Positions 8,443-51,470 of a DNA stretch of 64,000 bases are shown here, piece after piece. The DNA is from Clostridia bacterium (GTDB lineage: Bacteria; Bacillota; Sulfobacillia; SLMV01), in the NCBI GenBank assembly GCA_003552525.1, contig PUNF01000036.1, forward strand, positions 6,552 through 70,551. Direction: 5' to 3'. The notes beneath the pieces are model-generated. The model searched no databases. It saw nothing but the letters and a program-made list of their open reading frames with translations, and was not told the origin of the DNA. Within the stretch, counting starts at the first letter, position 1, and each line of letters starts with the position of its first letter. The position numbers and the translations under genes were made by a program.

Positions 8443-8478
8443 GGCAACACAACCTCTCCCTTCGCAGCCTATTGTCGA

Positions 8479-8506
8479 TTATACCGGGACGGACCCCGAT
8501 CCTCCA
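8479..8506 (-). promoter_or_regulatory. Candidate sigma-A promoter for gatCAB (-35 TTGGAG / -10 TATAAT)
   Basis: On the minus strand, a perfect TATAAT (plus 8479-8484) with TTGGAG about 18 nt upstream. Lies about 35 nt upstream of the gatC RBS GGGAGAGG. Confidence 0.4.
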
Positions 8507-8518
8507 ACGGCACGAGAA

Positions 8519-8546
8519 AGGGGAGCGCCGCCCTCGACGCTCCCCT
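8519..8546 (-). terminator. Rho-independent terminator after the opp-like operon
   Basis: Perfect 9-bp stem AGGGGAGCG / CGCTCCCCT with a 10-nt loop, followed on the minus strand by UUCUCGUG. Sits between the oppF-like stop (8576) and the gatC promoter. Confidence 0.55.
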
Positions 8547-8575: not shown

Positions 8576-9595
8576 CTACTCCTCGTGCAGCCAGCAGGCC
8601 ACGAAGTGCTCGGTACCGATATCCTGCCAGGGCGGCTTTTCCTCTGCACACTTGGGCATGGCATGGCGACAGCGGGTGCGGAAGTGGCATCCGCTGGGCG
8701 GGTTCGACGGACTGGGCACATCACCCTCCAGCACGATGCGCTTACGCGTACGCTGGATTTGCGGGTCGGCGATGGGAATCGCCGAGAGCAATGCCTCGGT
8801 GTACGGGTGTGCCGGGTTCTCGTACAGCTCGTCCTGTTCGGCCAGCTCCACCAGCTGTCCGAGGTACATCACCGCCACCCGGTCACTGATATGGCGTACG
8901 ACACTGAGATCGTGGGCGATGAACAGATAAGTCAGGTCGAATTCTTCCTGGAGGTCCTCGAGGAGGTTGAGCACCTGGGATTGAATCGACACGTCAAGGG
9001 CCGATACCGGCTCGTCGCAGACGATGAGCTTCGGGTTCAATGCCAGCGCGCGGGCGACCCCGATACGCTGACGCTGTCCACCGGAAAACTCGTGTGGATA
9101 ACGGCGCGCGTGCATCCCACGAAGACCGACGGTCTCGAGGAGGGAGCGGACACGATCGTCCTTCTCCTTGCGCCGGGCGACACCGTGGATCTCCAGGGGC
9201 TCACCGATGATATCTCCCACGGTCATACGCGGGTTCAACGAAGCATAGGGGTCCTGGAACACGATCTGCATGTCACGCCGGACCCGACGCATGTCTTCAC
9301 GGTCGAGGTCGAAGATGTTGCGCCCCTCGAACTCGACACTTCCCTCGGTGGCCTCCAATAGACGGAGGATCACACGGCCCGTGGTTGTCTTACCGCAACC
9401 GCTCTCGCCCACCAGGCCGAGCGTTTCACCGGGCTTGATGGTGAAGCTGACGTCGTCGACGGCCTTCACGAATCCGACGATGCGACTGAAGACGCCCCCG
9501 GTAATCGGGAAGTATTTCTTCAGGTTATTCACGACGATGAGGTCGTCCGTACCCTCGTGACTTTGCTTTTCCACAGCCTCTGCGGGCTGAACCAT
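8576..9595 (-). CDS. ABC transporter ATP-binding protein, oligopeptide/dipeptide family (OppF-like)
   Basis: Walker [13 protein letters not shown] signature LSGGQRQR, Walker [13 protein letters not shown], plus the oligopeptide/dipeptide C-terminal extension. Confidence 0.85.
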
Positions 9596-10591
9596 CTACG
9601 CCACCCCCGATCGATCTTTGGAGTGCAGCCAGCAGGCGACCTTGCGGCCATCTTCGCCCTCGATGAGGTCGGGCTGCTCTTCGAGACATACATCCATCGC
9701 GTAGGGACAGCGCGGGTTGAAGTAACAACCCTGGGGCATCGCCAGCGGATTCGGCACGACACCCTCGATGACGTGCAGCCGGTCGGTCTTGACCGAGTCC
9801 AGCCGCGGAATCGAGTTGATCAACCCCTCGGTGTACGGATGCTGCGGATCACCGAATACATCGTACACGCTACCCTCTTCGACGATCTTACCCGCGTACA
9901 TCACGACCACGCGCTCGGCCATCTCGGCGATGACGCCGAGGTCGTGGGTGATGAGCATGATGGCCATACCCAGCTCGTCCTTCAGGCGCTTCATCAGCTC
10001 GAGGATCTGGGCCTGGATGGTTACGTCGAGGGCCGTGGTAGGCTCGTCCGCGATCAACATCTTCGGGTTGCAGGACAGGGCCATCGCGATCATCACGCGC
10101 TGGCGCATACCACCGGACAACTGGTGGGGGTATTCGTCCACGCGCTGCTCCGGCGAGGGAATGCCGACGAGGTTGAGCATCTCGATCGCCTGCTTGCGGG
10201 CTTCCTTCTCGGATAGGCCCTGGTGCAGCTCGATGGCCTCCATGATCTGGTCTCCGACGGTGTAAACGGGGTTGAGCGAGGTCATCGGCTCCTGGAAGAT
10301 CATCGAGATGTCATTCCCCCGGATCTTCCGCATCTGCGAGTCCGACTTGGTGAGCAATTCTTCGCCTTCAAAAGTTATAGACGATCCCGTCAAGATCTTG
10401 CCTGGCGGATCGGGGATGAGGCGCATGATGGACAAAGAGGTTACGCTCTTGCCGCATCCACTCTCGCCTACCACTCCCAGAGTTTCTCCCCGATCTATGT
10501 GGAAGGAGACCCCATCTACTGCTGGGACTTCTCCATCCTCGGTGTAGAAGAAGGTTCTGAGGTTCTCTACGTTTACGAGGACTTCCGACAC
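9596..10591 (-). CDS. ABC transporter ATP-binding protein, oligopeptide/dipeptide family (OppD-like)
   Basis: Walker [11 protein letters not shown], signature LSGGMRQR, Walker [12 protein letters not shown]. Adjacent to the OppF-like gene. Confidence 0.85.
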
Positions 10592-10683
10592 GAAATCACC
10601 CCATTTTCGGTTGCTAGCAAGTATAGCCGTGAGAAAAAGCTATACCTACAGGTGGCATTATACAATATCTTTGCCGAAGAATC

Positions 10684-12321
10684 CTAGTTTCCTGCCGAAG
10701 AAAATCCAGTCCAATCCTCGATCCCGGTGAACACGGGTGCGACACCCTGCTGCATCTTGGGCAAGTCGGGCAAAGCGGAAATCTCACCGGTAGGAGAACC
10801 CAGGAACAGCGCCGGCACATCCCGCACCATCTCCTCCATCCATTCCCAGCGGTCGAGGTCTTCTTCCCCATATAACAGGAACTCGAACGAGGGTACGTTC
10901 GGTGGAGACACCGCGTAGTGCCACGGGTTGTCTCCAGCCCACGTCGAGGGGCACGCGAGTCCCGCGACCGGTCGGGCCAGAAGGTACATATCGTAGCGTC
11001 CCCGCCCATAGATGGTGTAGAGCATCAGGGATCGATCGGAAGGCACGAGATGAACGGTGATACCGATCCCGTCCAGGTCACGGCGGATCTGCTCCATGGC
11101 CGCATGACGCCCTGGATCTTCCGCCGGATACAAGGCATACAGTTCCGGAATGCGGGTTCCATCCGCACCATACCCGGCTTCTTCCAACAGTTCTTCCGCG
11201 CGCGCAGGATCGCGTTCTAGGCCATCGGAGGGGCCAATGCCCGCGCCGAGCAAGGCATCGAGGGGGCCACCGGCCACCGCGCCGGCCTCCCCAAACAACG
11301 CGGAGACCACTTCTTCTCGATCTACGGCGTACCCGATGGCGCGCCGGACCCGGGTGTCAGACAGGAACGCACTTTCCGTGTTGAAGCCGAGGTATTCGAC
11401 CGCATCCGCGCTCGGCCGAGCCCAGGTCGTGCGGTCCCCGGGAATCTCACCGCCGGTATGTCGCGCACGTGGTGCGACATAGACGACGTCCGCCCCCGAC
11501 AGGCTATCCGCCGAGGGCTCCGAATGGAAGTCAAAGCGCAGCGTGTCTACGTGATCATCGACGCCTTCCTCTTCGGGGTGAGCGCTCTCCTCTCCCTGCC
11601 GCTGGAGCACCCACCGGGTCCCATCGTCTCCAGACACCACTTCCAGCGCGAACGGGCCCAGCACCGGGTATTCGGTGTCTTCTAACGCGTCAGCCAACTC
11701 GCCCATGGGAATGTCTTCGAGCGCGTGGGATGGTAACGGCGACCACTGGGCCAAGAACCACAATGCCCGGGGTGTATCCTCCCGTAATTCAACGACGATA
11801 CGATCTTCCCTCGCCTCGCGAATACCCGCGATCCCGTCGGCCTCTCCCGAGCGATATGCTTCGGCTCCCCGGATGAAGTCCAGCTGATCGCCGGTATCCG
11901 GTCCGGCGGCATCGGGGTGGAGCATAAACTCCAACGCGAGCTGTAAATCGTGCGGGATGACACGGGCCCCATCCGTCCAATGCCGCTCCGACGGGAGGGT
12001 GATGACCAACTCCCGCTCGCCGGACATGGCGATATCTTCGGCCAGGTTCGGCCGGATGGTCCCATTCTCCTGGCGCACCGCCACGGGAGGATAGAGGACG
12101 GCGAGTGCGGGGTTCTCTATTTCCCGGGGCCATTCGAGCACGGGATGCCTTGCCGGGGACCGAGATCCCACCACTCCGATGGACACCTCCACCGGATCGG
12201 GGGGCAATTCGTCCTCGATATCCTCGGGATCATCCCAGTCTTCCGGATCCTCCGGCCCCTCGGGACCAAATGAGCAACCAGCCGTGAAGAACAAGAGCAT
12301 GCTCGCGGTGAAAATGATCAT
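10684..12321 (-). CDS. ABC substrate-binding lipoprotein, family 5 (peptide/nickel/opine type)
   Basis: Start at ATG 12321 (MIIFTASMLLFFTAGCS: signal peptide with lipobox). An acidic PEDPEDWDDPEDIED linker, and the SBP_bac_5-like motif DPARAEELLEEAGY. The ORF-track 95-codon N-extension is rejected. Confidence 0.8.
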   Translation of the reverse strand: MIIFTASMLLFFTAGCSFGPEGPEDPEDWDDPEDIEDELPPDPVEVSIGVVGSRSPARHPVLEWPREIENPALAVLYPPVAVRQENGTIRPNLAEDIAMSGERELVITLPSERHWTDGARVIPHDLQLALEFMLHPDAAGPDTGDQLDFIRGAEAYRSGEADGIAGIREAREDRIVVELREDTPRALWFLAQWSPLPSHALEDIPMGELADALEDTEYPVLGPFALEVVSGDDGTRWVLQRQGEESAHPEEEGVDDHVDTLRFDFHSEPSADSLSGADVVYVAPRARHTGGEIPGDRTTWARPSADAVEYLGFNTESAFLSDTRVRRAIGYAVDREEVVSALFGEAGAVAGGPLDALLGAGIGPSDGLERDPARAEELLEEAGYGADGTRIPELYALYPAEDPGRHAAMEQIRRDLDGIGITVHLVPSDRSLMLYTIYGRGRYDMYLLARPVAGLACPSTWAGDNPWHYAVSPPNVPSFEFLLYGEEDLDRWEWMEEMVRDVPALFLGSPTGEISALPDLPKMQQGVAPVFTGIEDWTGFSSAGN

Positions 12322-13151
12322 CACGAGGTGTCTGAATCGCCGCACGTGTTTCCCCTCTCCAAACTGTCCTCTCCATGGGCATGACCGAGGTACAACGCGA
12401 GGGCGAAACCGAACATCGCCCAGGCGACCACCGACGGTGAAAACAAATCGGGCAAGAGGGCACGGGCCGAGCCCGCCGTCAGCCCGGCGAGGAGCGCGTA
12501 AAGCAATTCCCGTCGCACCCGATATACGCGCCAAAGCAACATGCCCGTCACGATGACCCCGGCCAGCGCCCCTGATGCGAACTGGAGCATCCCGGCCCAG
12601 TCCCAACGGGCCGCGACGCCGATGACACGGGAATATACGCCCAGCATCACGAGCGCGGTCCCACCGCTAAACCCCGGCAGGATCATCGCACTACCCGAGG
12701 CGATCCCGGATCCCGTCAATTGCAGCGGAGATAGCACCGGGACGGATACTGCTTCCGTCGCGGCCAAAGGCACCAGGAACCAAACGGCCACGAGCCCCGC
12801 CGCGATCAGCGAAATCCCGGCAGGAGAGGGCGGGTGTCGGCGAACGATGTTCAATGAAGACGCCAACACGATCCCCAGCAGGAAGGCATGCGTCTGGGCG
12901 GGAACACGCTGAAACCCCCAGCCCACCGTCTGTACGCCGACCAGTGCCCCGACCACCCAGCCGCCACCCAGGGCAAGCAGGCGGCGCATCCTGAGTCGAC
13001 CGATATTCTCCACCAGCTCGGGGTACACGCCGAGTACCACGGCGACCGTTCCCGCGCTCAACCCGGGCACGACGGAAGCCGCGCCCATGATTACACCGAT
13101 CACACCGGAAACCAATACCCCACCGATACTTTGCCGGAGGGCGGTGACCAT
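12321..13151 (-). CDS. DUF368-family polytopic membrane protein
   Basis: About 8 TM segments with two PGxSxxG-type repeats (VVPGLSAGTVAV and ILPGFSGGTALV), typical of DUF368. Its TGA stop overlaps the substrate-binding-protein ATG by 1 nt (translational coupling). Its start lies 1 nt after the pcrA stop. Confidence 0.55.
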   Translation of the reverse strand: MVTALRQSIGGVLVSGVIGVIMGAASVVPGLSAGTVAVVLGVYPELVENIGRLRMRRLLALGGGWVVGALVGVQTVGWGFQRVPAQTHAFLLGIVLASSLNIVRRHPPSPAGISLIAAGLVAVWFLVPLAATEAVSVPVLSPLQLTGSGIASGSAMILPGFSGGTALVMLGVYSRVIGVAARWDWAGMLQFASGALAGVIVTGMLLWRVYRVRRELLYALLAGLTAGSARALLPDLFSPSVVAWAMFGFALALYLGHAHGEDSLERGNTCGDSDTS

Positions 13152-13152
13152 T

Positions 13153-15381
13153 TCAATCCCTCGCGACTTTCTGTAGGGGCGCCAAGGATGCGAGGAGTGT
13201 TTTCAGTCCATGCTCATCGAACACGATATTGAGTTCGTGATCGTTCTCGAGTGCTTTCACACCCACGACTCGCCCCGTGCCGAACACCTTGTGCTCGACC
13301 TGCTCCCCCGCCTTCAGGTCATTCGGCGCACGGCGACTCGGTGCCTGTCCCCCCGGGTGTGCCGAGGCGATACGAATCCTGTCCCGTGGTCCCCGAACCT
13401 GGGTCCGTGGCCTTTCGCGCTCCTCCGGCTGTAGCGTCACCAGGTGGTCCGGACCGATCTCGTCGATAAACCGAGACGGGAGTGTGGGCTCCGGGGGACC
13501 TCCAAAGCGACGACGGGACGTCGCGTAGGTAAGGAAAAGCCGATCCTGGGCACGCGTCATGCCGACGTAGCACAGGCGACGCTCCTCCTCGAGCTGCCCC
13601 GGATCTTCGAGCGCTCGCGCGTGGGGAAAGAGCCCCTCTTCCATTCCCACCAGGAATACCACCGGGAACTCCAATCCCTTCGCACTGTGTAGCGTCATGA
13701 GGGTGACCCGACTGCTGGCCACTTCCGCCTCGTCTTCGCTGGTAAGGAGCGCAAGGGAAGACAGGAAGGCCGCCAGGGCTTGCCGACCCGTCTCCTCCCC
13801 GACCCACGCCGCATCCTGTTCACCTTCTACGGTAAATCCGCGCGCCGCCGAGACCAGCTCATCGAGGTTTTCCCGCCGGCTGATGGCCTCGACACCACCG
13901 GCTTCCGCGATGAATGCCAGATAACCGCTATCCTCGAGAACACGCCACAGGATTTCCGCCGGCTCCAGGGAATCCAGGGCCCCGAGGATATCCCCAAGCG
14001 CCGCGTGAAAGTCCCCAAGAGATGTCTTCTGCTTCCGGTTCAACCCGGGCACCTCATCGAGACGCTCGAGGAGCTGGAAGGCATCCATGTCTCCTTCGTC
14101 CGCAATCCGACGAAGTTTCTCGAGCGTCGCCGCGCCGATCCCGCGGCGCGGTTTGTTAATGATCCTTTCGAAGCTGGGCCAATCATCCGGATTGACCAGC
14201 AGCCGCAACAGCGCCAGGGCATCCTTGATCTCCGCGCGCTCGAAAAACCGCTGTGATCCCACGATCTCGTAGGGTACGCCGCGTTCACGGCAGGTCATCT
14301 CGAACAGGCGTGACTGGGCATTGGTACGATACAGGACGCCGAAATCGGACCACGGGCGGTTTTCTTCGAGTGCAAGTTGCTGAATGCAGGATACGACGAA
14401 GCGCGCTTCCATCTCCTCCGAGTGCCCGCAATACAGGGTCACGGGTTCACCACCACGACGTTCGGTCCAGAGATCTCGATCGAGGCGCGCGGCATTGCAC
14501 ACGATGATCTTTTGTGCTGCGCGAAGAATCGCATCCGTGGAGCGGTAGTTCTGCTCCAACCGATAGATTTCGGCGTCGGGGAAATCGCCGGTAAAGTTTA
14601 GGATGTTCGACATATCTGCACCGCGCCACCCGTAGATGGATTGGTCGGCGTCACCCACGGCGAAGACATTACGGTGCTCCTCCGCCAACATTTTCACCAG
14701 CCGATACTGGGCATGGTTGGTATCCTGGTACTCGTCCACCAACAGGTGCAAAAACCGTTGGGCATACCGCCGCAGGATCTCGGGATGGTCCAGGAAGAGT
14801 CGGATCGTGAGCATGATAAGATCGTCAAAATCCATGGCGTTGTACTCCCGGAGATCGTCAACATATCTCCGATACACGGGCGCAATGCGCTGTTCATAAT
14901 AGTCCGAGCCGGCCAGGTCCCCGGGGGTGCGCAGGTCATTCTTGGCACGACTGATACGCTGGATGATCCGAGCGGGCTCCCACTCCTTCTCGTTCATGTC
15001 GAGATCCCTTAGGATCTGGCGAATCGTCGTGCGTTGATCGGAGCGATCGAATATGGTGAACCCCGGCCGATACCCCAGGTGCCGGGCCTCGCGGCGCAGG
15101 ATGCGCAGGCAGGTCGCGTGAAACGTACCGATCCACATCCCACCCACATCACGCCGCAGGAGCGCCTCGCAGCGCTCCCGCATTTCCCTCGCAGCCTTAT
15201 TCGTGAACGTGATTGCCAGGATGCGCTCCGGTGACACACCGCGATCGAACACCAGGTGCGCCAAACGCCTCGTCAGAACCCGGGTCTTCCCGCTCCCCGC
15301 ACCGGCCAGAACCAGTGCGGGCCCGGTCTCGTGGCACACGGCGCGCGCTTGGTTTTCGTTAAGTTCAGAGAATACGTCCAA
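13153..15381 (-). CDS. pcrA: ATP-dependent DNA helicase PcrA/UvrD (SF1)
   Basis: ALVLAGAGSGKTRVLTRR Walker A plus all UvrD/PcrA helicase motifs; 742 aa. TTG start, preceded by GGGGGGA. Confidence 0.9.
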   Translation of the reverse strand: MDVFSELNENQARAVCHETGPALVLAGAGSGKTRVLTRRLAHLVFDRGVSPERILAITFTNKAAREMRERCEALLRRDVGGMWIGTFHATCLRILRREARHLGYRPGFTIFDRSDQRTTIRQILRDLDMNEKEWEPARIIQRISRAKNDLRTPGDLAGSDYYEQRIAPVYRRYVDDLREYNAMDFDDLIMLTIRLFLDHPEILRRYAQRFLHLLVDEYQDTNHAQYRLVKMLAEEHRNVFAVGDADQSIYGWRGADMSNILNFTGDFPDAEIYRLEQNYRSTDAILRAAQKIIVCNAARLDRDLWTERRGGEPVTLYCGHSEEMEARFVVSCIQQLALEENRPWSDFGVLYRTNAQSRLFEMTCRERGVPYEIVGSQRFFERAEIKDALALLRLLVNPDDWPSFERIINKPRRGIGAATLEKLRRIADEGDMDAFQLLERLDEVPGLNRKQKTSLGDFHAALGDILGALDSLEPAEILWRVLEDSGYLAFIAEAGGVEAISRRENLDELVSAARGFTVEGEQDAAWVGEETGRQALAAFLSSLALLTSEDEAEVASSRVTLMTLHSAKGLEFPVVFLVGMEEGLFPHARALEDPGQLEEERRLCYVGMTRAQDRLFLTYATSRRRFGGPPEPTLPSRFIDEIGPDHLVTLQPEERERPRTQVRGPRDRIRIASAHPGGQAPSRRAPNDLKAGEQVEHKVFGTGRVVGVKALENDHELNIVFDEHGLKTLLASLAPLQKVARD

Positions 15382-15406: not shown

Positions 15407-15415
15407 ATTGTAGCA
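15407..15415 (-). promoter_or_regulatory. Candidate extended -10 promoter (TGcTACAAT) for pcrA
   Basis: Minus-strand TGCTACAAT (TGn + TACAAT) in the 68-nt purD-pcrA spacer, about 25 nt upstream of the pcrA start. Confidence 0.35.
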
Positions 15416-27940: not shown

Positions 27941-29497
27941 TCACTCCCACTCGATCGTGGCCGGTGGCTTGGACGTAATGTCGTAGGCGACGCGATTGAT
28001 ACCGGGAACCTCGTTGATGATCCTCCTGGCCGTGACATCCAGAACGTCAGCCGGGATCCTCGCCCAATCGGCAGTCATGGCGTCTTCGCTGGTAACCGCC
28101 CGCAACACGGCGGTGGAGGCATACGTCCTCTGATCCCCCATGACACCCACGCTCAGCATATCGGGAAGCACGACGAAGCTCTGCCATATATCACGATAGA
28201 GGTCGGCGGCACGGAGTTCCTCTTCGAAGATCGCATCGGCTTCCCGAAGGGTATCGAGTTTCTCCCGGGTAATCTCGCCGAGGACACGTACCGCGAGCCC
28301 GGGCCCGGGGAAGGGATGACGGGTCAGGATTTCCCCGGGGATCCCGAGTGCTTCCCCCACGCGGCGGACTTCGTCCTTGAACAGTTCACGCAGCGGCTCC
28401 ACCAGCGCCATCCGCATTTTCTCTGGCAACCCGCCGACGTTGTGGTGACTCTTAATCACCGCCGAGCCACCCACCCCGCTCTCCACGACATCGGGATAGA
28501 TGGTTCCCTGAACCAGGAAATCGAAGTCGCCGAGGGCACGGGCCTGTTCATCGAAAACCGATATGAACTCGTGCCCGACGATCTTTCGCTTTTGCTCCGG
28601 ATCGCTTACCCCCGCCAGGGCACTCAGGAAGCGCTCCGATGCATCAACCGCCACCACGTTGAGTTCCATCTCCCTGGCGAAGAACTCGGTGACGGTGTGG
28701 GCTTCCTCTTTGCGCAGGAGACCGTGATCGACAAATACGCAGGTGAGCCGGTCCCCGATGGCCCGGTGAACCAGTACCGCGGAGACGGCCGAATCGACCC
28801 CCCCGCTTAGGCCACAGAGGGCACTACCCGACCCCACCTGTTCGCGGATCTGCTGCACCGCATGCTCGATGAACGACTTCATGTCCCATTCGCCGGAAAA
28901 ACCGGCGATATCATGAAGCCAGTTCCGGAGCATGTCCAGTCCCCTATCGGTATGCCCGACCTCCGGGTGGAATTGCACGCCATAAATCGGAAGCGCTTCG
29001 TGTACCATCGCTGCCACCGGTGTCCCCTCGCTATGGGCCAGCACCTTGAAACGATCGGGAGGCTCATTCACCAGGTCACCATGGCTCATCCACACGTCAA
29101 TTCGCGAGGGGATTCCGGCGAAGAGGCGATCGGTGGAGGCCAGTTGAAGAGAGGTCCTCCCGTACTCCCGTCGCGAGGCCGGTCCCACGGCCTCGCGGCC
29201 ACCATAATGGGCGGCAATCAGCTGGTGACCGTAGCAAATACCCAGCACGGGGATCCCCAGCTCGAAAATCCCTTCGTCCGCCGTGAGAGCATCCTCGTGA
29301 TATACACTGCCCGGACCGCCAGTGAGGATCAATGCACCCGGGTTTCGTGCGGAGATTTCCTCCACGCTTGAATCACCCGGCATGATTTCGCTGTAGACAC
29401 GGCACTCGCGGACCCGCCTTGCGATCAACTGCGAATACTGGGCACCAAAGTCCAATATGATGACCTTTTCCTGCGGAATCGCCTGGCTCTCTTTCAC
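27941..29497 (-). CDS. guaA: GMP synthase (glutamine-hydrolysing)
   Basis: N-terminal class I GATase (GICYGHQL) plus an ATP-pyrophosphatase domain (SGGVDSAV); 518 aa. Confidence 0.9.
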
Positions 29498-30072
29498 CCG
29501 TCATCCCCCTCGTTCGACAAATCTTCGATCACCCGCACGCAGGGTAGCGCACGATAGCGCTGGTTCCAATCCAGCCCGTATCCAACCACGAATTCGTCCG
29601 GTATAGCCCGACCCACGTACTCCACCGATACGTCGATAGCCCTGCGCTCCGGTTTATCAAGGAAAGCGACGACACCCACGCTGGCCGGACCCCGGGTGGC
29701 GAAATGTTCCCTCAAATACCGCAGGGTCAACCCGGTGTCCACGATATCTTCCACGATCAACACGTGGCGATCCTCAATGGGGGACTCCAGATCGTGGAGG
29801 ATTCGGACCACGCCGGAGGATGTCGTGCTGCTGCCGTAGCTGGAAACGGCCATGAAGTCCAGGGAAACCGGTATGCTCAAGGCCCTGGCCAGATCCGACA
29901 TGAACACGACCGCTCCCTTTAGGATCCCGATCAACAGTAGCGGGCTTTCCTCGGTGACCAGATCCGCATAATGCGCGGATATCTCGGCGGCCAAACTCGT
30001 GACAATCGCGGAAATCTCCTCTTCGTCGACGAGGCAGCGTCCGAGTCGCATCATCGGCTCATTTTCACCCAA
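29494..30072 (-). CDS. hpt: Hypoxanthine-guanine phosphoribosyltransferase
   Basis: PRTase motif [14 protein letters not shown]; about 185 aa. Overlaps the guaA start by 4 nt. Confidence 0.85.
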
Positions 30073-30236
30073 AGGTCCCTCACCCTCTTCCCATCGGCTC
30101 CGCCTCTAGCATACCCGAACATCGAAACGGGCAAAACGCCCTTTCGAAAGTGTCGAAACCCCGGGCAATGGGGCTTCGCGACGGATCACCTCGAAGCAAG
30201 GGGTATGGCCGGGCTGGTAGTGGAACCTAGAGAAAC

Positions 30237-30258
30237 GGCTCCCCTCGCGAGGGGAGCC
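30237..30258 (-). terminator. Rho-independent terminator downstream of groEL
   Basis: Perfect hairpin GGCTCCCCT-CGCG-AGGGGAGCC (9-bp stem, 4-nt loop) 35 nt after the groEL stop, followed on the minus strand by GUUUCUCUA. Confidence 0.55.
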
Positions 30259-30293
30259 GTCGTAGATGTATATCCTTGAGTTGGGGGCGAAAT

Positions 30294-31958
<1,665 letters not shown>

Positions 31959-31989
31959 TTAGCGATTGTGTACCGTCGGAAACCGATTA

Positions 31990-32277
31990 CTACTCGACGC
32001 GAGCTAGGATGTCGCGCTCACTGAGGATCAGGAGCTCTTCGCCCTTGATCTTGACCTCGGTTCCGGCATACTTGGAAAAGATGATGGTATCGCCTTCGGA
32101 AACCTCGAGGGATACCTTTTCGCCGTTGTCGAGCATCTTGCCCGAACCCACCGCGACCACTTCACCCTGCTGCGGCTTCTCCTTGGCGGTATCGGGAAGG
32201 ACGATGCCACTACTGGTAACCTCTTCCTCTTCGATCACCCGAACGACGACCCGATCACCCAAAGGTTTAATGTTCAT
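31990..32277 (-). CDS. groS: Co-chaperonin GroES (Hsp10)
   Basis: 95 aa; [19 protein letters not shown] ... canonical GroES. Confidence 0.9.
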
Positions 32278-32335: not shown

Positions 32336-32362
32336 TTAGCACTCGCTGATGGTGAGTGCTAA
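32336..32362 (-). promoter_or_regulatory. CIRCE operator (HrcA binding site): TTAGCACTC-N9-GAGTGCTAA
   Basis: Exact match to the CIRCE consensus inverted repeat (TTAGCACTC gctgatggt GAGTGCTAA), 58 nt upstream of groES. Confidence 0.9.
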
Positions 32363-32982: not shown

Positions 32983-34251
32983 CTACGATGCGTTGGATGT
33001 CCTACATAACTCGACATTTGCCAGGGGGATCGTCTCTACCCTGTCATCCGCGTGACGGCGAACCCGCACGGAATCCAGCAGCATACCGGAGGGGTAGCGG
33101 ACGGTCCCCACGTGCTCCTGCACGGTGGCCATCTGTCCAAGCGCGTCGACACCGAGCAGGCGGACGTGGTCACCCGGTTGCGGCACCCCGGGCTCCACCG
33201 CGATGCGGGGAATATCTGCCCCAAAAACCCCGGGGAAGAGCAATTCGGCATCTCCATCACGCAGGATGGTGATCGATACCATGGCACCGTCGAAGGTCTC
33301 CAGACCCTGCACGAAGACCCGGGGAAGCGGTCGTCTTCCGAATCCGGCCAGCAATACCAGCCCGAATCCCGGATCCGTTTCCAGCGTCTCGGACATGTCC
33401 CTCCAATCCAATCCGCCAGCCACCAGTCCCGCCACACCCATGTCCAGGGCGCGGCGGCTCGTATCGGCGGTGGGCGTGCCGGTCAAGGCAACCACGGTAC
33501 CCGGTTCGACCGCGGCCAGGTCGGCGGTCTCGGTCACTACCTTGAGGCGCCCGGTTGCCTCACCCCCGGAACCGTATACACCCCGCATGACCCCCACTTC
33601 ACCGTGCACGACGGCACCCCTGGCATCCACGAGCGACTCCACCGTACCCGCCACCTGGGCATGCACGGTGTGCTCCTCCACGTTTCTTGCGATGATAATG
33701 CTACCGGTGGCCCGATCGAACCGCTCCACCGTGCCCCCGAAGGGCGTGTACGCGTAGTTGGCGCCGTCCACCCCGGGGGCCGCCGCAAGGATTTGGCCTT
33801 CTTCTATCTCGTCCCCCTCGCGGACGCGGACGTGCATCCAGGCCACGGCCGGCCACACCTTGAGTGCCTCCACGATATTGATCGACTGCCGCGCCCGTTC
33901 ACTGCCGGGTTCTTCCCTGAGGTATACGCGCCCACGGGAGCGGGACAAGTACTCGACGAGTCCATCGATGGGACTCGTGACCTCAAAGGGCGCAACGGGA
34001 CCGCGCGCAACGCGGTCACCCGCGCGCAAACGGTCGCCTACATTGACCTCGATCCGCGTTTCATCGGAAGCGCGAAGATCGGGTCCTATATCGATGACAT
34101 AAGGGCTGCCGGTCAACAGGCGGGCGCGAGCAATGGGCGTCTCCGGGGCTACAACATCCCCGGGCTCGACGAGGACCTCCCCCGGGAGGCGAAGTGCACG
34201 AGTCTTGCGGATCCGGCGATTCTCGATCATGGGTGAACCCCTACTGGACAT
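32983..34251 (-). CDS. Module A partner protein: N-terminal lipoyl/biotinyl-like hybrid-barrel domain plus an uncharacterised C-terminal alpha/beta domain; paralog of 44262..45410
   Basis: 422 aa. N-terminal ...GEVLVEPGDVVAPETPIARA... and ...VNVGDRLRAGDRVA... resemble barrel-sandwich hybrid motifs, but no lipoyl or biotinyl Lys context is present. The C-terminal GVAGLVAGGLDW ... LVLLAGFGRRPLP is paralogous to GVVGLVSGGIVD ... LTLIITEGFGPM in the module B partner. Start overlaps the upstream ATPase stop. Confidence 0.55.
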   Translation of the reverse strand: MSSRGSPMIENRRIRKTRALRLPGEVLVEPGDVVAPETPIARARLLTGSPYVIDIGPDLRASDETRIEVNVGDRLRAGDRVARGPVAPFEVTSPIDGLVEYLSRSRGRVYLREEPGSERARQSINIVEALKVWPAVAWMHVRVREGDEIEEGQILAAAPGVDGANYAYTPFGGTVERFDRATGSIIIARNVEEHTVHAQVAGTVESLVDARGAVVHGEVGVMRGVYGSGGEATGRLKVVTETADLAAVEPGTVVALTGTPTADTSRRALDMGVAGLVAGGLDWRDMSETLETDPGFGLVLLAGFGRRPLPRVFVQGLETFDGAMVSITILRDGDAELLFPGVFGADIPRIAVEPGVPQPGDHVRLLGVDALGQMATVQEHVGTVRYPSGMLLDSVRVRRHADDRVETIPLANVELCRTSNAS

Positions 34252-36070
34252 CTGAACGCGCCTCCTCTTCCGAAGTTAAGCCCATCGCGGCTCTCCAGCG
34301 TGCCGAGGTGGCGGGTCCGGCGGCATCCGGACCCGATGGCTGCAGCGGTCGACCCCGTGCATCGATGATCAGGCCGACTTCGCCGCCCCGTATGGTGGCA
34401 GACACGCGCTTGCCGGGTCCATCCCCGAGGTCGTAATTGCGTCGCGGGATGACATCGATGTCCATCGTCCTGTCGGTGGCCAGCGGGATTACTTCGAGCT
34501 CTCCCGCCCTGAGAAGGCGCGAGTATCGCTCCCCGTCGGCGGCCGTCAGGTACATCTCGGCAATGGGTGTGCGATGTCGGCCCCAGGGTTCTCCGGTCGG
34601 GGCCACCACGGTGGCGAGGGGGAGTAACCAGCGCGTGAAGAAGGCATCGGCCAGGTCGGGGGCGTGCTCCATGACGGATCCCACCTGTGCCAGGAGTCCC
34701 TCCCGATCGACGTACAGCCGACTAATGCCGGCGGGCTGAATTCCGTCGAGTAGCAGGAGTGCTGCCTCCGCGGGCGATGGCGTGATCCCCAGGATGCTGC
34801 CGGTACCGACGATGACGTCGAGTGCGGTGGCCTCCACGAGCGGCTGTCCCGTCTTCGTTTGTTCGAAGGTATCGTCAAAGGTGCGATATTGCTTGATCCC
34901 ACGAAGCCCCACGACCAGCTCGCGATGCTCTTCAAAAGCGATGCGCAGGCTCTCCCGCGCCAGACTGTGGAGCAAGTCCAAATCGCGTGCGGTTTCTGGA
35001 ACCGTGCCCGGCCGCAGCGTCCGATTGATTGCCCAGTTTTCCACCAGGCGGCGGTCCACCGGATGGTGCAGCCATCGCGACACGCCCTCCACCCCGACCC
35101 GATCCAGGACGCCTGACGCACTGTACCCCACGCCGAGATCACCACTGACGGAGCGGTTGTAGCGTTCACGGATGATACTGAATACGTCCACGGTGGCCGA
35201 ACCCATGTCCACACCGAGCACATTGACCCCGTATCGGGTGGCCATCGCCCGCAGGATTCTCCCGGTCGCGGCGGGAGTAGGCTCGAGCATCCCCCCGGTG
35301 TGATAAAGGAGATCGGCGTAACCGGGCGTACGCCGGGCAACGTGCTCGAGGTATAAATCCGAGATCGTTTTTCGGACCGGCTCCAGGCTTTCTTCTTCCA
35401 GGCTGGGACGCAAGTTCTCGACCACGTGTACTTCTCCGACGGAGCCTAACAAAGAGGCTACCGGTTGCCGGGCCTGCACGTTGCCGGCAAAAATGATGGG
35501 TATCCCGTCGCCATCACCGAGCCGGGGTTTTGGCCCGGCGGCCACCAGGTACTCCGCCAGTCCCACGACATGTTCCACGGTACCCGTATCGGTCCCCCCG
35601 GCCATCAGGATCATATCCGCCTCTGCGTTGCGGATGATGTCGAGACGCTCCGATAGTGTTCGACCATCATCCGTGGCCACGACCGCTGAGACCGTAGCGC
35701 CCGCTCCGAGTGCTGCCCTCTCGGCACTCTCCGCTGTCATCATCCGTACCAGGCCCAGGCACAGCAGGCGCATTCCGCCGGCCGCACTGCTCGTTGCCAC
35801 CAGGATGTCGGCCCCGCGATCATCCACGGCCCCGGTGAGGAGGGGCTGATCGTCTTCAACCAGTACGCGGCCCGTCTTGGCCTCCAACTCCCCGAGGGCC
35901 GAAACGAGGCCCGGCATCACGGTGTCACCCTCCGCACTCCACGTCGTAGCCGCCCGACCCACGCCGACCAGGGAGTACCCGGTCGCGTCACAGGCGAAGA
36001 GGGCCACCTTGGTGCTGGCGGAACCGATGTCCGCTGTTAGGATCGTGCGGGTTTCCTCGTGCTCAGCCAA
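34241..36070 (-). CDS. Module A EutA/MutL/DdrA-type ASKHA ATPase (B12-enzyme reactivase-like family), 609 aa
   Basis: N-terminal phosphate-1 motif ILTADIGSASTKVALF (compare EutA GIDIGTTTTQVIF and DdrA IAGIDIGNSSTEVALA). MTAESAERAALGAGA, GGTDTGTVEHVVGLAEYL and a second-lobe LGVDMGSATVDVF align with the diol-dehydratase-reactivase alpha / EutA pattern. ATG start preceded by GGGGAGG. Confidence 0.7.
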   Translation of the reverse strand: MAEHEETRTILTADIGSASTKVALFACDATGYSLVGVGRAATTWSAEGDTVMPGLVSALGELEAKTGRVLVEDDQPLLTGAVDDRGADILVATSSAAGGMRLLCLGLVRMMTAESAERAALGAGATVSAVVATDDGRTLSERLDIIRNAEADMILMAGGTDTGTVEHVVGLAEYLVAAGPKPRLGDGDGIPIIFAGNVQARQPVASLLGSVGEVHVVENLRPSLEEESLEPVRKTISDLYLEHVARRTPGYADLLYHTGGMLEPTPAATGRILRAMATRYGVNVLGVDMGSATVDVFSIIRERYNRSVSGDLGVGYSASGVLDRVGVEGVSRWLHHPVDRRLVENWAINRTLRPGTVPETARDLDLLHSLARESLRIAFEEHRELVVGLRGIKQYRTFDDTFEQTKTGQPLVEATALDVIVGTGSILGITPSPAEAALLLLDGIQPAGISRLYVDREGLLAQVGSVMEHAPDLADAFFTRWLLPLATVVAPTGEPWGRHRTPIAEMYLTAADGERYSRLLRAGELEVIPLATDRTMDIDVIPRRNYDLGDGPGKRVSATIRGGEVGLIIDARGRPLQPSGPDAAGPATSARWRAAMGLTSEEEARSDVQ

Positions 36071-36199
36071 GCCGGTACCTCCCCGCTAACCGGAAACGGC
36101 AACCGAATTTGTTGCTCTCCCTTCTTTCGTTTCGGGGCAAATGATTCCCTGCATGGATCTTAATCCGGAGGGAATGGCTGTCGAATGGATGAATCGCAA

Positions 36200-44261: not shown

Positions 44262-45410
44262 CTAGCCCTCGATAATCTCCACATTTGCACGAGGCACCAT
44301 GACTTCGGTGCCGTCAGCAAGCCTGGCATTGAGCACGCGCACCCGGGTCTCGCTCTCGACAACCTGCAGCTCCGGGGGAAGCCCGGTGACCTCCGCGAGG
44401 GCGCCAAAATAAGGATCACGGATGATCCGGATGGGTGTTCCGACACCCAGGCCGCCACTTTCGTCCTCGTCCTCGGTATCCACATCCTCGGGGGCATCCC
44501 GCAATTGCTCGAGCATGCTGGCGTCCGGGCTAATGATCTCCGGCCGCATCACCCCTGCACGAATCTGCGTCGCACCGTTGAGGGAGGCCTCCTGCCCTTC
44601 CAGTTCTTGGAGGAGCTCGAACGTCTTATCCGCGATGCGCATCGGGCCGAAACCCTCGGTGATGATGAGCGTCAGCGGAATGTCCTCGTGTCCGGTAATG
44701 GCCACGCCGATATCATAGCCCAGGTAATCGATGAGATCGGCGTCCACGATACCACCCGAAACGAGACCGACCACGCCGACTTCCTCGGCGCGACGGAGAA
44801 TTCCGGCCGTGGCCACGCTGCCAACGACGACGATCTTACCCTCACAGCTGGCATCGAGCGCCGACGGCTCTATCCTTTCGTCGGGCGAAGATGCGACAAC
44901 CTTGATCGCGCCACGACGCTCGCCGCCGATACCGAAGATACCCTGGATGAAAGCCCCGGCGGTTTCGACGACCACGCCCTCCTCGGGCAAAACCCGGCGG
45001 ACGATTCCCTCCACGTAGGCCTCTACATCCAGTGGCGTCGGGGGCTCTCGCAATACCATCTGTCCACTGACATCGGAGATCATCTCGACGGTACCATCCA
45101 CTGGCGACATCTGCTCCGACTTGAATAGGCCGAAAAAGGATATCTTGCGCGCGATGACCTGCCCTTTCTCGACGGTCTCGCCCTCTTTCACCGTCACCAC
45201 GTCCGGCAGCTCGTAGGGTTCCACCGTTAACAGCTGCGAGATATTTACGCTAACGGGATCACCGGGAATCTCGGTCTTGGCGACGACGTCATGGGGCTGC
45301 ACCATGTCCCCGACTTCGACCGTCACCTCGCCTTTAATGGGAAGGCGGCGCGTCTTGCGAACGACCTCCCGGTTACTCACCTTCAGCCCCGGAGTATACG
45401 CATGAGCCAT
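44262..45410 (-). CDS. Module B partner protein: lipoyl/biotinyl-like N-terminal barrel plus an alpha/beta domain; paralog of 32983..34251
   Basis: 382 aa. N-terminal KGEVTVEVGDMVQPHDVVAKTEIPGD and VKEGETVEKGQVIA ... SPVDGTVEMISDVSGQMV are hybrid-barrel motifs. C-terminal KIVVVGSVATAGILRRAEEVGVVGLVSGGIVD ... LTLIITEGFGPM, plus an acidic EDVDTEDEDESGG linker. Its start abuts the upstream ATPase stop. Confidence 0.55.
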   Translation of the reverse strand: MAHAYTPGLKVSNREVVRKTRRLPIKGEVTVEVGDMVQPHDVVAKTEIPGDPVSVNISQLLTVEPYELPDVVTVKEGETVEKGQVIARKISFFGLFKSEQMSPVDGTVEMISDVSGQMVLREPPTPLDVEAYVEGIVRRVLPEEGVVVETAGAFIQGIFGIGGERRGAIKVVASSPDERIEPSALDASCEGKIVVVGSVATAGILRRAEEVGVVGLVSGGIVDADLIDYLGYDIGVAITGHEDIPLTLIITEGFGPMRIADKTFELLQELEGQEASLNGATQIRAGVMRPEIISPDASMLEQLRDAPEDVDTEDEDESGGLGVGTPIRIIRDPYFGALAEVTGLPPELQVVESETRVRVLNARLADGTEVMVPRANVEIIEG

Positions 45411-45411
45411 T

Positions 45412-47292
45412 TTATACCGCCCGCCCTTCCTCGATGTACTTCATGAGGGCGTCCATGGGATAAATATCGAGCGCCTCGATCCAGTTCCTGATCTGCTTGC
45501 GGCGATCGGCCTCCTCTTTCTCGAGAAAGACCGGGCGGCCGCGTGCATCGATGATCAGTCCGACGATTCCACCCTCGACTTCCACGTCCATGGCGCGCCC
45601 CGTGCCCTCGCCGACGTCCCAGCGGCGGCCGGGCTCCACGTGTGCCTGGGCAACGCTTCCCTCTTCGAGCGGGATCAACCGGATCTCGCCGAACCCGAGG
45701 GTCTCCACCCGCTCCGTGCCATCGGGCATGGTGAGCGTCACCTTGACCGGGGTGGAGTCGCGGAGGTTCTCCATCCTGATGCCTTCCTGGGGTACCGGGG
45801 CGATACTGCTCCCGAGGCACACCAGGCAATCGCGGTCGAAGACCTGCGCCGATGCCTCGGGATGCACCGTGGCCAAAACACCCAGCTGTGGCATCATAAA
45901 GATGCTGTCGACCGCCAGGCGCGTAACACCCTCGGGTTGGAAGGCATCCAGCATCATCAGTGCGGACTGCACGCGGCGCGGTGCGTGGGACAATACCCCA
46001 CCACTGCCGAGGATCATGCCGAGGGTCATCATGTTCACGAGCGTCGCACCGCTGACCTTCTGGTCAAAAGTATCTCCCATGTCTCGGGCCTGGCGAATAC
46101 CCTTCAAGCCGGTCGCCAGCGTCTTGTGGTGTTCGAACGCGAGGCGCAGGGCTTCCCGCGCAAGGGCCTGCTCCACCACGAGTTCCTCGAGGGAATGGGG
46201 AATCGTCGTCGGGCGAATCATCTTGTTGCGGATTCGGCTGCGAAGCGCCTCCTCCGATACGGACATGGGCAACCACCGGGAGATGCTGTCCAACCCGGTC
46301 TCCAGCAAAACGTTGCATATACTGTAGCTCATCCCGAGGTTGGCCGATACCGTGCGGTTGAAGGTGCCGGCGAACACACTGAAAACATCGGTGGTGGCGC
46401 CCCCGATGTCTACCCCCAGCACTTCCATCTTGTATTGCTTGGCGACGTTTTGGATACCCAGCCCGACCGCGCCCGGCGTCGGCATGATCGGGGCATCTGT
46501 CCAACCCATGAGCTTGTTGTACCCGGGTGCCTGGGCCATGACGTGCTCCATGAAGAGGTTGTGGATCTCCTCGCGCGCGGGTTCTAGGACCTCTTCTTCC
46601 AGTACGGGCCGTATGTTATCGACCAGGCGAAGGTCCAGGCTCTCTCCCAGTGTATCCCTGACGTGTCCGCGGGCGTCCTTGTTACCCGCAAAGATAACGG
46701 GCAGCTGGAAACCGATCCCGAGGCGCGGACGCGGATCCGCTGCGGCGATCAATTCGGCGATCTGGCTCACGTGGGCAATGGTGCCGCCATCCACACCACC
46801 GGACAGTAGGATCATATCCGGTCGCAATTGACGGATCCGGGAAATCTTTTGGTGTGGCAATCTCCCATCGTCTACCGAGATCGCATCCATGACGATGGCA
46901 CCCGCGCCCAATGCCGCGCGTTCTGCACTCTCGGCCGTCATCGTCTTCACGACCCCGGCCACCATCATTTGTAGTCCGCCACCGGCACTACTAGTGGAAA
47001 GATAGACGTCCGCGCCCTTCTCATCCGACGCCCGTGGTCGAATTACTCCCTCGGGCGCAAGGAGCGTCTTGCCGGAAAGTTCTTCCACCTCGGTCACGGC
47101 ATTGCGCACGCCCATGGTCACGTCCTCAAAGGGTGCTTCCACCGTCGTGGGAGCCTCACCGCGGACGATAAGCCGATACTCACCATCGCGCTTTTCGATG
47201 AGAATGGCCTTGGTGGTCGTACTTCCACAGTCGGTGGCGACAATAGTTTGGATTTGATCCTTTGGAATCTTCGTTACACCTTCCGTCGACAA
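45412..47292 (-). CDS. Module B EutA/MutL/DdrA-type ASKHA ATPase (reactivase-like family), 626 aa; paralog of 34241..36070
   Basis: IVATDCGSTTTKAILI phosphate-1 motif, MTAESAERAALGAGA, GGVDGGTIAHVSQIAELI, and second-lobe VLGVDIGGATTDVF. About 50% identical to the module A ATPase over most of its length. Start re-placed at TTG 47292, preceded by GGGAGGAGGAGAGG. Confidence 0.7.
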   Translation of the reverse strand: MSTEGVTKIPKDQIQTIVATDCGSTTTKAILIEKRDGEYRLIVRGEAPTTVEAPFEDVTMGVRNAVTEVEELSGKTLLAPEGVIRPRASDEKGADVYLSTSSAGGGLQMMVAGVVKTMTAESAERAALGAGAIVMDAISVDDGRLPHQKISRIRQLRPDMILLSGGVDGGTIAHVSQIAELIAAADPRPRLGIGFQLPVIFAGNKDARGHVRDTLGESLDLRLVDNIRPVLEEEVLEPAREEIHNLFMEHVMAQAPGYNKLMGWTDAPIMPTPGAVGLGIQNVAKQYKMEVLGVDIGGATTDVFSVFAGTFNRTVSANLGMSYSICNVLLETGLDSISRWLPMSVSEEALRSRIRNKMIRPTTIPHSLEELVVEQALAREALRLAFEHHKTLATGLKGIRQARDMGDTFDQKVSGATLVNMMTLGMILGSGGVLSHAPRRVQSALMMLDAFQPEGVTRLAVDSIFMMPQLGVLATVHPEASAQVFDRDCLVCLGSSIAPVPQEGIRMENLRDSTPVKVTLTMPDGTERVETLGFGEIRLIPLEEGSVAQAHVEPGRRWDVGEGTGRAMDVEVEGGIVGLIIDARGRPVFLEKEEADRRKQIRNWIEALDIYPMDALMKYIEEGRAV

Positions 47293-47365
47293 GCAGCCTC
47301 TCCTCCTCCCGGGTCCCCGGCGTGGTGCCGGGTGACCGGAGCATTTCACCCCAACCGCCGATTGC

Positions 47366-47752
47366 TCATCCTGCCGACCCCTCGGGGGGATCGTCTTTTC
47401 GCTCCTCCGCATCCTCAGATCGCCGCTCCGCCTTCTCCTCGGCAGCCCGCTTACGCGCTGCGCGACGCTGCTTCTCTTCTTCTTCGATCATTTCTTCAAG
47501 GCGCTCGACAAGGCGATCCAGGTTCTCTCGATCCTGAAGCAAATACCCAATTTCCGAGGCATAGGGATGCCCGGTGAAAAGGTTCGTAAACGGTGCCAGC
47601 ATGTGCATCCCCTGGCTGGTTACAAACGAAAGCGGGCGGAAACCGTCAAATAACATGATGGCGGGCGCGACCATCTCCCACTCGTAGATCCGCTGTGCAG
47701 CCCACTCGATCAATTCATCCCGTCTCTCGGGAGAAATATCATCTCTGCGCAC
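47366..47752 (-). CDS. Hypothetical protein with a highly charged (E/K/R-rich) C-terminal tail, immediately upstream of the module B ATPase
   Basis: 128 aa. A conserved-looking N-terminal region (EWAAQRIYEWEMVAPAIMLFDGF...) is followed by ERLEEMIEEEEKQRRAARKRAAEEKAERRSEDAEERKDD, a low-complexity charged tail. No family assigned. Confidence 0.4.
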   Translation of the reverse strand: MRRDDISPERRDELIEWAAQRIYEWEMVAPAIMLFDGFRPLSFVTSQGMHMLAPFTNLFTGHPYASEIGYLLQDRENLDRLVERLEEMIEEEEKQRRAARKRAAEEKAERRSEDAEERKDDPPEGSAG

Positions 47753-49290: not shown

Positions 49291-49366
49291 CAGCGCACCT
49301 TCCCGGGGCCAATCCCCCAATGCAACGCGAACGCCCATCACCTTGCGATGGGCGTTCGCGGACTCA

Positions 49367-50605: not shown

Positions 50606-50627
50606 GAGTACCTCCTCCTTCTCGGGA

Positions 50628-51470
50628 CTAGCGGCTCGAACACGACGCCAGGTAGATCATGGCACGCAGGCCACGATAGGCCGACGGCGCATCCTGGGCA
50701 GTATACTCTACCTCAACCGGGGACTTCCGCTCGGATCCGGGCAGCAGTCCCGCGAGGTCTGCCATGGCCGTATCCCTGGTTGTAAGCGCGACTGTGACCG
50801 GGGATTCGGACTTGGGTTCGGGGATTTCACCCGCCCCCAATGCCTTCATCGCCGCGGCCATTCCCTCGCGGATGGCCGCGCGCGCCGCCTCCGGCGGCAT
50901 GCACAATGCGGCATAGCGTCCCACATCTTCTTTGACGGCCGTGGTCACTGCGGACGGGTTTCGCTCCTGCACCTGGCGACACGTGGCAGTGTCACCGCTG
51001 GTGAATATCAGCGGGATCCCAAAGTGCGCGGCAATCGCGGCGTTGAGTCCCGCCTCCCCAACCTCCACGCCATTGAGCACGAGTCGCGATACCACCGCAC
51101 CGGAAATGGTATGGTTGAGCACCCCATGCGTTCCCGCCCGCGCATGGTATCCCACGAACGCAGCGGCGGCAAAACCATCCCGATCGTCGATCCCTTCCAT
51201 CTGCCCCATTAACTTTGGTGCGCCGGTCAACAGGCGGGCGGACGGGTGAATATCCTCGATGAGAAGGTTTCTCATGCCCCCGTGTCCATCATTGACGATG
51301 ACCTCGTCGGCTCCTCCATCCACCGCTCCCGCTACCGCTGCATTGACTTCCTCTGTCACGAGCTTGCGCGTCCGCGCGTAATCCGAGCCCCCGGCTCCGA
51401 CCTGGTCGCCATGGACCACGCCGCTGACACCCTCCAGATCGGCCGATATGTATATGCGTAACATATTCAT
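50628..51470 (-). CDS. dppA: D-aminopeptidase DppA (peptidase M55)
   Basis: MLRIYISADLEGVSGVV ... VNDGHGGM is the M55 signature; 280 aa. Confidence 0.8.
   Translation of the reverse strand: MNMLRIYISADLEGVSGVVHGDQVGAGGSDYARTRKLVTEEVNAAVAGAVDGGADEVIVNDGHGGMRNLLIEDIHPSARLLTGAPKLMGQMEGIDDRDGFAAAAFVGYHARAGTHGVLNHTISGAVVSRLVLNGVEVGEAGLNAAIAAHFGIPLIFTSGDTATCRQVQERNPSAVTTAVKEDVGRYAALCMPPEAARAAIREGMAAAMKALGAGEIPEPKSESPVTVALTTRDTAMADLAGLLPGSERKSPVEVEYTAQDAPSAYRGLRAMIYLASCSSR

Follow-up and report, generated by a model that had tools for sequence, protein, structure and literature searches.

A stand-alone OppD–OppF ATPase pair between pcrA and gatCAB in a Clostridia bacterium: a probable split Opp importer beside a DUF368 candidate undecaprenyl phosphate translocase

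The 64-kb stretch of contig PUNF01000036.1 analysed here (positions 6,552 to 70,551, Clostridia bacterium assembly GCA_003552525.1; GC content about 62%), hereafter the window, carries two ATP-binding cassette (ABC) ATPase genes of the oligopeptide permease (Opp) type, oppD and oppF, next to genes for a substrate-binding protein (SBP) lipoprotein and a DUF368 membrane protein. We favour, with moderate confidence, the reading that this locus holds one part of a split Opp importer, in which the stand-alone OppDF pair powers one or more OppBC-type permeases encoded elsewhere, and to which DUF368 is unrelated. The pair is intact, evolves under strong purifying selection and retains its OppB/OppC docking surface, and therefore most likely energises OppBC permeases at other loci. 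The region as a whole is probably best described as three transcription units lying side by side within a housekeeping block (pur genes, pcrA and gatCAB) rather than as one new machine, a view that departs from the original prediction of a single Opp-like system coupled to DUF368 and pcrA.

All genes of the locus lie on the minus strand in the order purH, purD, pcrA, DUF368, SBP, OppD-like, OppF-like, gatC, gatA and gatB, with Pfam matches all well above the cut-offs and with gatC starting at 8442, after oppF. Gene calls and Pfam thus bear out the order from pcrA to the OppF-like gene as originally read. The central five genes are as follows.

13153–15381, minus strand: pcrA, a UvrD/PcrA helicase (UvrD-helicase, E 2.5e-92; UvrD_C; PcrA_UvrD_tudor), first gene of the pcrA–DUF368–SBP unit
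12321–13151, minus strand: DUF368, 276 aa (PF04018, E 8e-31)
10684–12345, minus strand: family-5 SBP lipoprotein (SBP_bac_5, E 5e-32), with a GTG start at 12345 and an alternative ATG at 12321
9596–10591, minus strand: OppD-like ABC ATPase (ABC_tran, E 7e-31) with a C-terminal oligo_HPY domain (E 3e-22)
8576–9595, minus strand: OppF-like ABC ATPase (ABC_tran, E 2e-35) with an oligo_HPY domain (E 1e-19)

Within this array, the junctions differ in tightness. The pcrA stop codon ends at 13153 and the DUF368 ATG begins at 13151, leaving the gap of 1 nt that had been noted before, while the DUF368 TGA (12323–12321) shares its A with an in-frame ATG at 12321. This shared nucleotide is the 1-nt DUF368/SBP overlap of the original prediction, and it stands as a reading of the letters; the likelier SBP start is the GTG at 12345, which lies 5 nt after a strong Shine–Dalgarno (SD) sequence, GGAGAGGGGA (12360–12351), and yields a normal lipoprotein signal, MRRFRHLVMIIFTASMLLFFTAGC (MRRFRHLV...FTAGC), so that the SBP gene probably overlaps DUF368 by 25 nt. 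Further along, the oppD stop directly abuts the oppF ATG, whereas SBP and oppD are separated by 92 nt. These spacings argue for translational coupling limited to pcrA–DUF368–SBP, with SBP and oppD uncoupled. The proposed coupling of the ABC system to DUF368 and pcrA therefore survives for the SBP and fails for oppD–oppF, which follow a 92-nt spacer with signals of its own. The same layout recurs in six other genomes, each assembled independently of the window, and is therefore not an assembly accident.

No OppB or OppC gene is found in the 64-kb window by tblastn with eight OppB/OppC queries (best E 0.045), the same eight queries reaching about 1e-110 on a control locus. Only four open reading frames (ORFs) in the 64 kb have at least three predicted transmembrane (TM) helices, and none is OppB/C-like: DUF368, a lone energy-coupling factor (ECF) S-component, and two ORFs at the window start, the latter two outside the profile-library scans. 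Permease subunits (BPD_transp_1, OppC_N) are likewise missing from the locus, from the window and from the same locus of six relatives. Within 64 kb, tblastn and the TM-helix count thus agree with the original statement that no canonical permease genes are present. Of the two explanations offered at the time, permeases encoded elsewhere is the one favoured by the evidence, by analogy and by the selection on the pair, although the 64 kb searched from the window genome hold none.

The two ATPases are well-formed members of their families. Their best NCBIfam matches are DppD/OppD for the OppD-like and OppF/DppF for the OppF-like protein, and in the alignment Walker A, Q-loop, signature, Walker B and H-loop are intact in both. 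Additionally, four cysteines are kept in the C-terminal oligo_HPY domain of both OppD and OppF; some DppD/OppD structures show an Fe-S cluster in this domain. Between orphan pairs and those of complete operons, hardly any change is seen in OppD residues about 94–205, the stretch with the Q-loop, helical subdomain, signature and Walker B, a pattern that fits continued docking on OppBC-type coupling helices rather than a switch to DUF368.

Sequence identity between the window and its four closest relatives (L003–L006) is 92–96% for OppD and 89–93% for OppF, compared with 72–73% for PcrA, 63–68% for PurD, 66–67% for GatA, 56–58% for DUF368 and 43–45% for the SBP, making the ATPases the slowest-evolving genes of the block and the SBP the fastest. 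The OppD subfamily as a whole appears slow-evolving, most of 120 listed homologues (Symbiobacteriaceae, Thermaerobacter and other Bacillota) being 74–78% identical, while cognate OppB is by contrast only 58–60% identical outside the Thermaerobacter group. The GC content at third codon positions (GC3) of oppDF follows each host locus, at 0.55–0.58 in L023 and 0.93 in L032, and the identity hierarchy is congruent with those of pcrA and gatA. On these two features, recent horizontal transfer of oppDF was rejected as the source of the high identity; they indicate vertical descent under very strong purifying selection.

Such conservation bears directly on the idea that the SBP and ATPase genes are non-functional, decaying remains of an operon that lost its permeases through deletion, which we regard as very improbable. 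Neither this slot nor the groEL–hpt slot used in other Clostridia contains permease genes, and the SBP is the fastest-evolving gene, as decay would have it. The three genes are nevertheless intact in seven genomes, down to 50–73% PcrA identity to the window, with no frameshifts or stops seen; moreover, no genes of the block evolve more slowly than those of the ATPases, which have every catalytic motif, the expression signals are conserved, and the SBP keeps a lipobox-like signal in six of the seven genomes and shares more than 200 unchanged residues with a relative of 43–45% identity.

The history of the slot between pcrA and gatCAB can be read across lineages. The window clade comprises seven genomes, the window together with L003, L004, L005, L006, L023 and L038 (the last two added through context look-ups), with PcrA identity to the window falling to 50–57% for L038 and L023. 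All seven share the order pcrA–DUF368–SBP–OppD–OppF–gatCAB without a permease, and the DUF368–SBP overlap is kept in every one. A Thermaerobacter metagenome-assembled genome (MAG; L032) holds a complete operon in the same slot, pcrA–ligA–SBP–OppD–OppF–SBP–OppB–OppC–SBP–gatC. In a Symbiobacteriaceae MAG (L030), a near-identical metagenome contig (L031) and a complete 4.3-Mb genome (L027), the order is ligA–zfHC2–OppD–OppF–gatCAB, with no SBP, DUF368 or permease gene in the slot. From this series, the deeply conserved element is therefore OppDF next to gatCAB, and the linkage of DUF368 and SBP is a clade-specific addition. The adjacency of DUF368 and SBP in relatives, which the original prediction had proposed checking, is accordingly real throughout the clade of seven genomes and confined to it.

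Permease modules lacking their own ATPases occur in related lineages. The closest homologues of Thermaerobacter OppB (58–60% identity) sit in SBP–OppB–OppC(–SBP) loci without OppD/F in the Clostridia MAGs L034 and L037, where an ATPase-less SBP–OppB–OppC module and an ABC exporter pair lie between groEL and hpt(–guaA); the SBP of these modules is orthologous to Thermaerobacter SBP2 (54%). Roughly ten metagenome loci with enough flanking sequence likewise lack ATPases, and an ATPase-less SBP–permease module is seen in L120. Opp systems of the split kind are common among these lineages. The L120 module (SBP–OppB–OppC) has a GC content of 0.62 like the window, and was considered as a clade member; given its origin in other samples and a tetranucleotide correlation with the window of 0.73, where true clade members reach 0.86–0.94, it was not assigned to the clade. 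In the search with Thermaerobacter OppB, the best 120 matches include no protein from the window's contig and none from the 4.3-Mb genome L027. Exact matching of the window's own proteins yielded a single 5.9-kb Logan contig (SRR490150).

These comparisons also bear on a non-canonical role for OppD/OppF, either powering a membrane partner other than OppBC or acting as a soluble regulatory ATPase pair with the lipoprotein as sensor. The pair survives without an adjacent permease in at least two lineages, always among core housekeeping genes, and at every distance its conservation exceeds that of PcrA and GatA; the four oligo_HPY cysteines, if they bind an Fe-S cluster, could serve sensing. Set against this, homologues of 75–78% identity reside in ordinary complete OppDF–SBP–OppBC operons (L032 and L024, the latter with a 78%-identical OppD heading a complete OppD–OppF–SBP–OppB–OppC operon elsewhere than this slot), the Q-loop/helical region that contacts the permease is nearly invariant between orphan and operon pairs, and ATPase-less OppBC modules in need of such a pair are common. 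A non-canonical job is thus unlikely, though it is less easily dismissed than decay.

Under the favoured split-importer reading, the oppDF pair would be the remnant, at this site, of the complete Opp operon still present in the same slot of the Thermaerobacter MAG. It would energise one or more OppBC-type permease pairs elsewhere in the genome, and the fast-evolving acidic lipoprotein, probably along with other SBPs, would bring peptides to those permeases. The arrangement resembles the Opp/Dpp importers (PepT family, TC 3.A.1.5; B. subtilis OppABCDF and AppDFABC) in its family-5 SBP lipoprotein, its distinct OppD and OppF with oligo_HPY domains, and the D-F-first order of the complete relatives L024 and L032. 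It differs in that OppB/OppC are missing from the 64 kb, in that the ATPase genes are predicted to be transcribed apart from the SBP gene, and in that the ATPases are far more conserved than the flanking housekeeping genes. Opp-type systems divided among loci are known, as in S. aureus, where NikA (Opp5A) works with NikBCDE (Opp2), and in E. coli, where MppA works with OppBCDF. These systems similarly spread one PepT-family importer over several loci, with orphan SBPs docking on distant permeases; there, however, it is the SBP that is encoded alone, with the permease and ATPase genes still linked, whereas the window holds the ATPases and one SBP apart from the permeases.

The strength of the constraint further suggests, by analogy, that two or more permease systems draw on the pair, in the manner of MsmX/MsiK-type ATPases. 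A broader version of this idea, in which OppD–OppF is a separately expressed power unit shared by many scattered Opp-type SBP–permease modules in these high-GC Bacillota, is put forward tentatively, as somewhat less than an even chance; if true, it would account for an evolutionary rate of the pair several-fold below that of core replication and translation genes. The extreme constraint could reflect service to several permease systems, or it could reflect simply high expression. MsmX, MsmK and MsiK (PMC7658222) share with the window ATPase genes located away from permease genes and equipped with their own signals, a conserved permease-contact region, and ATPase-less SBP–permease modules, here in genomes related to the window. 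They are single MalK-like homodimers acting on CUT1 sugar importers, whereas the window encodes an OppD/OppF pair of the peptide family for which sharing would be an extrapolation. By sequence, the window pair is at most an analogue of the multitask ATPases, not a member of the group.

Several points weigh against the split-importer reading. Neither the window nor the corresponding loci of its relatives yielded an OppB/OppC for the window genome or for any of the seven clade genomes, and the placement of permeases elsewhere in the window genome draws on analogy and on the signature of selection. The groEL–hpt slot, site of the SBP–OppBC module in L034 and L037, is empty in the window, where groES–groEL–hpt–guaA are contiguous (27941–32277, minus strand). 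Third codon positions of oppDF have diverged considerably from L003–L006, though less than those of neighbouring genes (identity 0.52–0.70, compared with 0.32–0.49), which would point either to some later recombination or to constraint on synonymous sites through codon bias and high expression. In the papers retrieved, the documented multitask ATPases belong to the CUT1/MalK-like class (PMC7658222), the literature search returned no described orphan or shared OppD/OppF pair, and the putative promoters described below are consensus matches. A literature match to an 'orphan oppF' concerned the TldR-associated oppF of enterococci and was set aside as unrelated.

A cluster of peptidase genes elsewhere in the window is consistent with reliance on peptide import. 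It spans 48043–55385 (minus strand), has no transporter gene beside it, and encodes two M20 peptidases, an M55 D-aminopeptidase, an asparaginase II, an S58 (DmpA-type) peptidase, a C26 gamma-glutamyl hydrolase and a pyridoxal phosphate enzyme. Just upstream of the cluster, on the same strand, lies an alanine racemase gene (56027–57301).

The putative expression signals of the locus were located in aligned intergenic regions of the clade, whose genomes have GC contents of 54–65%.

15407–15415, minus strand: extended −10 promoter-like box TGCTACAAT upstream of pcrA, conserved in the purD–pcrA spacer of five clade members
10657–10662, minus strand: TATAAT box in the SBP–oppD spacer, a putative oppDF promoter, invariant in all seven clade members in an AT-rich context
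10617–10649, minus strand: predicted stem-loop of the 5′ untranslated region just downstream of the TATAAT box (RNAalifold on six relatives, with the window copy folded)
8520–8545, minus strand: predicted intrinsic terminator hairpin after oppF, with an 11–12-bp stem followed by UUUCU (folding)
8476–8485, minus strand: promoter-like −10 box GGTATAATCG for gatCAB, the downstream boundary of the unit, with TATAAT in the oppF–gatC spacer of five relatives

The more distant relative L023 carries TGTTAAAAT at the place corresponding to the TGCTACAAT box. The oppDF stem-loop forms a 14-bp helix in which 9 of the 14 pairs show compensatory changes on both sides, the structure being kept and the sequence not, and it is followed by a strong SD, GGGGTGAT (10602–10595), before oppD. 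Moreover, a GC-rich hairpin with a T-tract occurs at the position of the oppF terminator, with a different sequence, in L003, L004, L005 and L038. The ATPase genes, lying apart from any permease gene, are thus bracketed by a TATAAT box, a 5′ hairpin and a terminator of their own, which together argue that oppDF forms a separate transcription unit. A simple scan for promoters and terminators was uninformative in so GC-rich a region and failed to pick up the oppF terminator, and Rfam returned no regulatory RNA there.

The DUF368 protein matches PF04018 at 107.9 bits (cut-off 26) over residues 22–234, nearly the whole protein, and current Pfam names this family 'VCA0040-like, undecaprenyl phosphate translocase-like'. 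NCBIfam polyprenyl-phosphate transporter models also match (NF052564, E 2e-23, 83 bits; NF052563, E 2e-14, 53.5 bits), both under the equivalog cut-offs of 400 bits, which places the window protein in the family by sequence and not as a close orthologue of the characterised PopT or V. cholerae transporter. It has about eight hydrophobic segments and a motif, PG[LF]S[AG]GT...LGVY, that occurs twice (residues 29–43 and about 158–173) and replaces the PGxSxxG repeat of the original prediction; no solved structure was matched by sequence. PopT-type undecaprenyl phosphate (C55-P) translocases were reportedly described by Roney and Rudner in 2022. Mutation of DUF368 in V. cholerae or S. aureus leads, mainly at alkaline pH, to a build-up of C55-P at the cell surface and to peptidoglycan defects, and the family is over-represented among halophiles (Sit et al., Nature 2022, PMC9876793).

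Together, the Pfam name, the NCBIfam models and this work (PMC9876793) make the earlier statement that DUF368 has no established function out of date, while the accompanying hunch of a flippase-like family was right, yet for a lipid carrier and without an ABC ATPase. By analogy, the best reading of the window DUF368 gene is a candidate C55-P translocase and a bystander to the Opp genes. Acting alone, the protein would bring C55-P back to the inner leaflet for use in cell-wall synthesis, a task expected to matter particularly in alkaline, saline surroundings. With PopT, VCA0040 and SAOUHSC_00846 (PMC9876793) it shares PF04018 over nearly its whole length, a two-fold internal repeat and about eight hydrophobic segments, and the window's relatives come from an alkaline, saline habitat, where the DUF368 family matters most. 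It differs in its divergence (83 and 53 bits against 400) and in its position between pcrA and the SBP gene, where relatives have ligA.

The possibility that DUF368 is instead the membrane partner of the SBP and the ATPases, giving a new ABC-driven transporter such as an ATP-powered C55-P or muropeptide system, draws on the tight packing of pcrA–DUF368–SBP with the DUF368–SBP overlap in all clade members, on the lack of another multi-pass membrane protein nearby, and on the remark of Sit et al. that what powers DUF368 at alkaline pH is unknown (PMC9876793). The ATPase genes, however, stand as a unit of their own, set off by 92 nt that contain a conserved promoter-like box, the orphan OppDF pairs of other lineages have no DUF368 nearby, and the ATPase interface is canonical. 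Within the clade, DUF368 is 34–62% identical (L005/L006, 83%) against 74–96% for OppD/OppF, and there is therefore no sign of co-evolution. In addition, one DUF368 gene on its own, taken from S. aureus or from Haloferax, is enough to complement V. cholerae (PMC9876793). With the linkage restricted to one clade, oppDF carrying its own signals and the interface canonical, the functional tie between DUF368 and the transporter suggested in the original prediction is not upheld, and an ABC partnership of this kind appears very improbable.

The SBP matches PF00496 (SBP_bac_5) at 111.9 bits (cut-off 32.4) and gives weak matches to peptide, nickel and haem SBP structures in the PDB. A lipobox-like xxxC (for example FTAGC or FIAGC; ATLGC in L038) was read in six of the seven clade members, L023 having IGWQC. 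The protein is strongly acidic (D+E 18.7%, K+R 7.2%), and a PEDPED-type Pro/Asp/Glu linker, common to the relatives, follows directly after the lipidated cysteine; an acidic SBP with such a linker fits the secreted proteins of haloalkaliphiles. Identity between clade members is 33–50%, rising to 71% for the sister pair L005/L006. Homologues are very few: a scan of species-representative genomes returned four full-length relatives of 40–44% identity, all from uncultured Clostridia/Bacillota MAGs, two of them named CSSed, a label for MAGs from hypersaline soda-lake sediment.

The SBP was also compared with Thermaerobacter SBP1, which occupies the same position, and no significant BLAST match emerged. 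In relatives, ligA follows pcrA, and the Thermaerobacter family-5 SBP (L032, 6422–7939) overlaps the ligA stop; in B. subtilis, the order is pcrA–ligA–yerH, with a lipoprotein gene last. A lipoprotein gene ending the pcrA operon may thus be an old feature of the Bacillota. The window has no ORF assigned as ligA at the expected size of about 670 aa.

If a stand-alone OppDF does serve distant permeases, annotation pipelines would get peptide-uptake capacity wrong in these uncultured soda-lake Bacillota wherever they score Opp as incomplete at one locus or the other. If the pair is moreover shared, the multitask-ATPase principle would reach from the homodimeric sugar-importer class to the heterodimeric peptide-importer class. 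The 'function unknown' label of the DUF368 gene can be retired, in a lineage whose relatives live at the high pH where the family matters. None of this overturns current understanding; the locus is a tidy evolutionary case rather than a new mechanism.

Other features of the window lie outside the pcrA–gatCAB block. A lone ECF S component (PF12822; 27241–27816, plus strand; five predicted TM helices) sits between guaA and purE, with no ECF T or A components in the window. A perfect CIRCE inverted repeat, TTAGCACTC-N9-GAGTGCTAA (32336–32362, minus strand), the operator of HrcA, precedes groES (31990–32277) and groEL (30294–31943). Two paralogous PF13941 'MutL' proteins (34241–36085 and 45412–47412, minus strand; E 2e-94 and 2e-125), of the glutamate-mutase-reactivase-like family rather than of mismatch repair, are each followed by an ORF of roughly 380–430 aa with a weak Pfam match or none (32983–34275 and 44262–45410). 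Finally, a full-length glmS ribozyme/riboswitch (RF00234; 61211–61371, minus strand; 106 bits, E 7e-24) lies directly upstream of a glmS-type gene (59299–61167, minus strand) with GATase_6/7 and two SIS domains.

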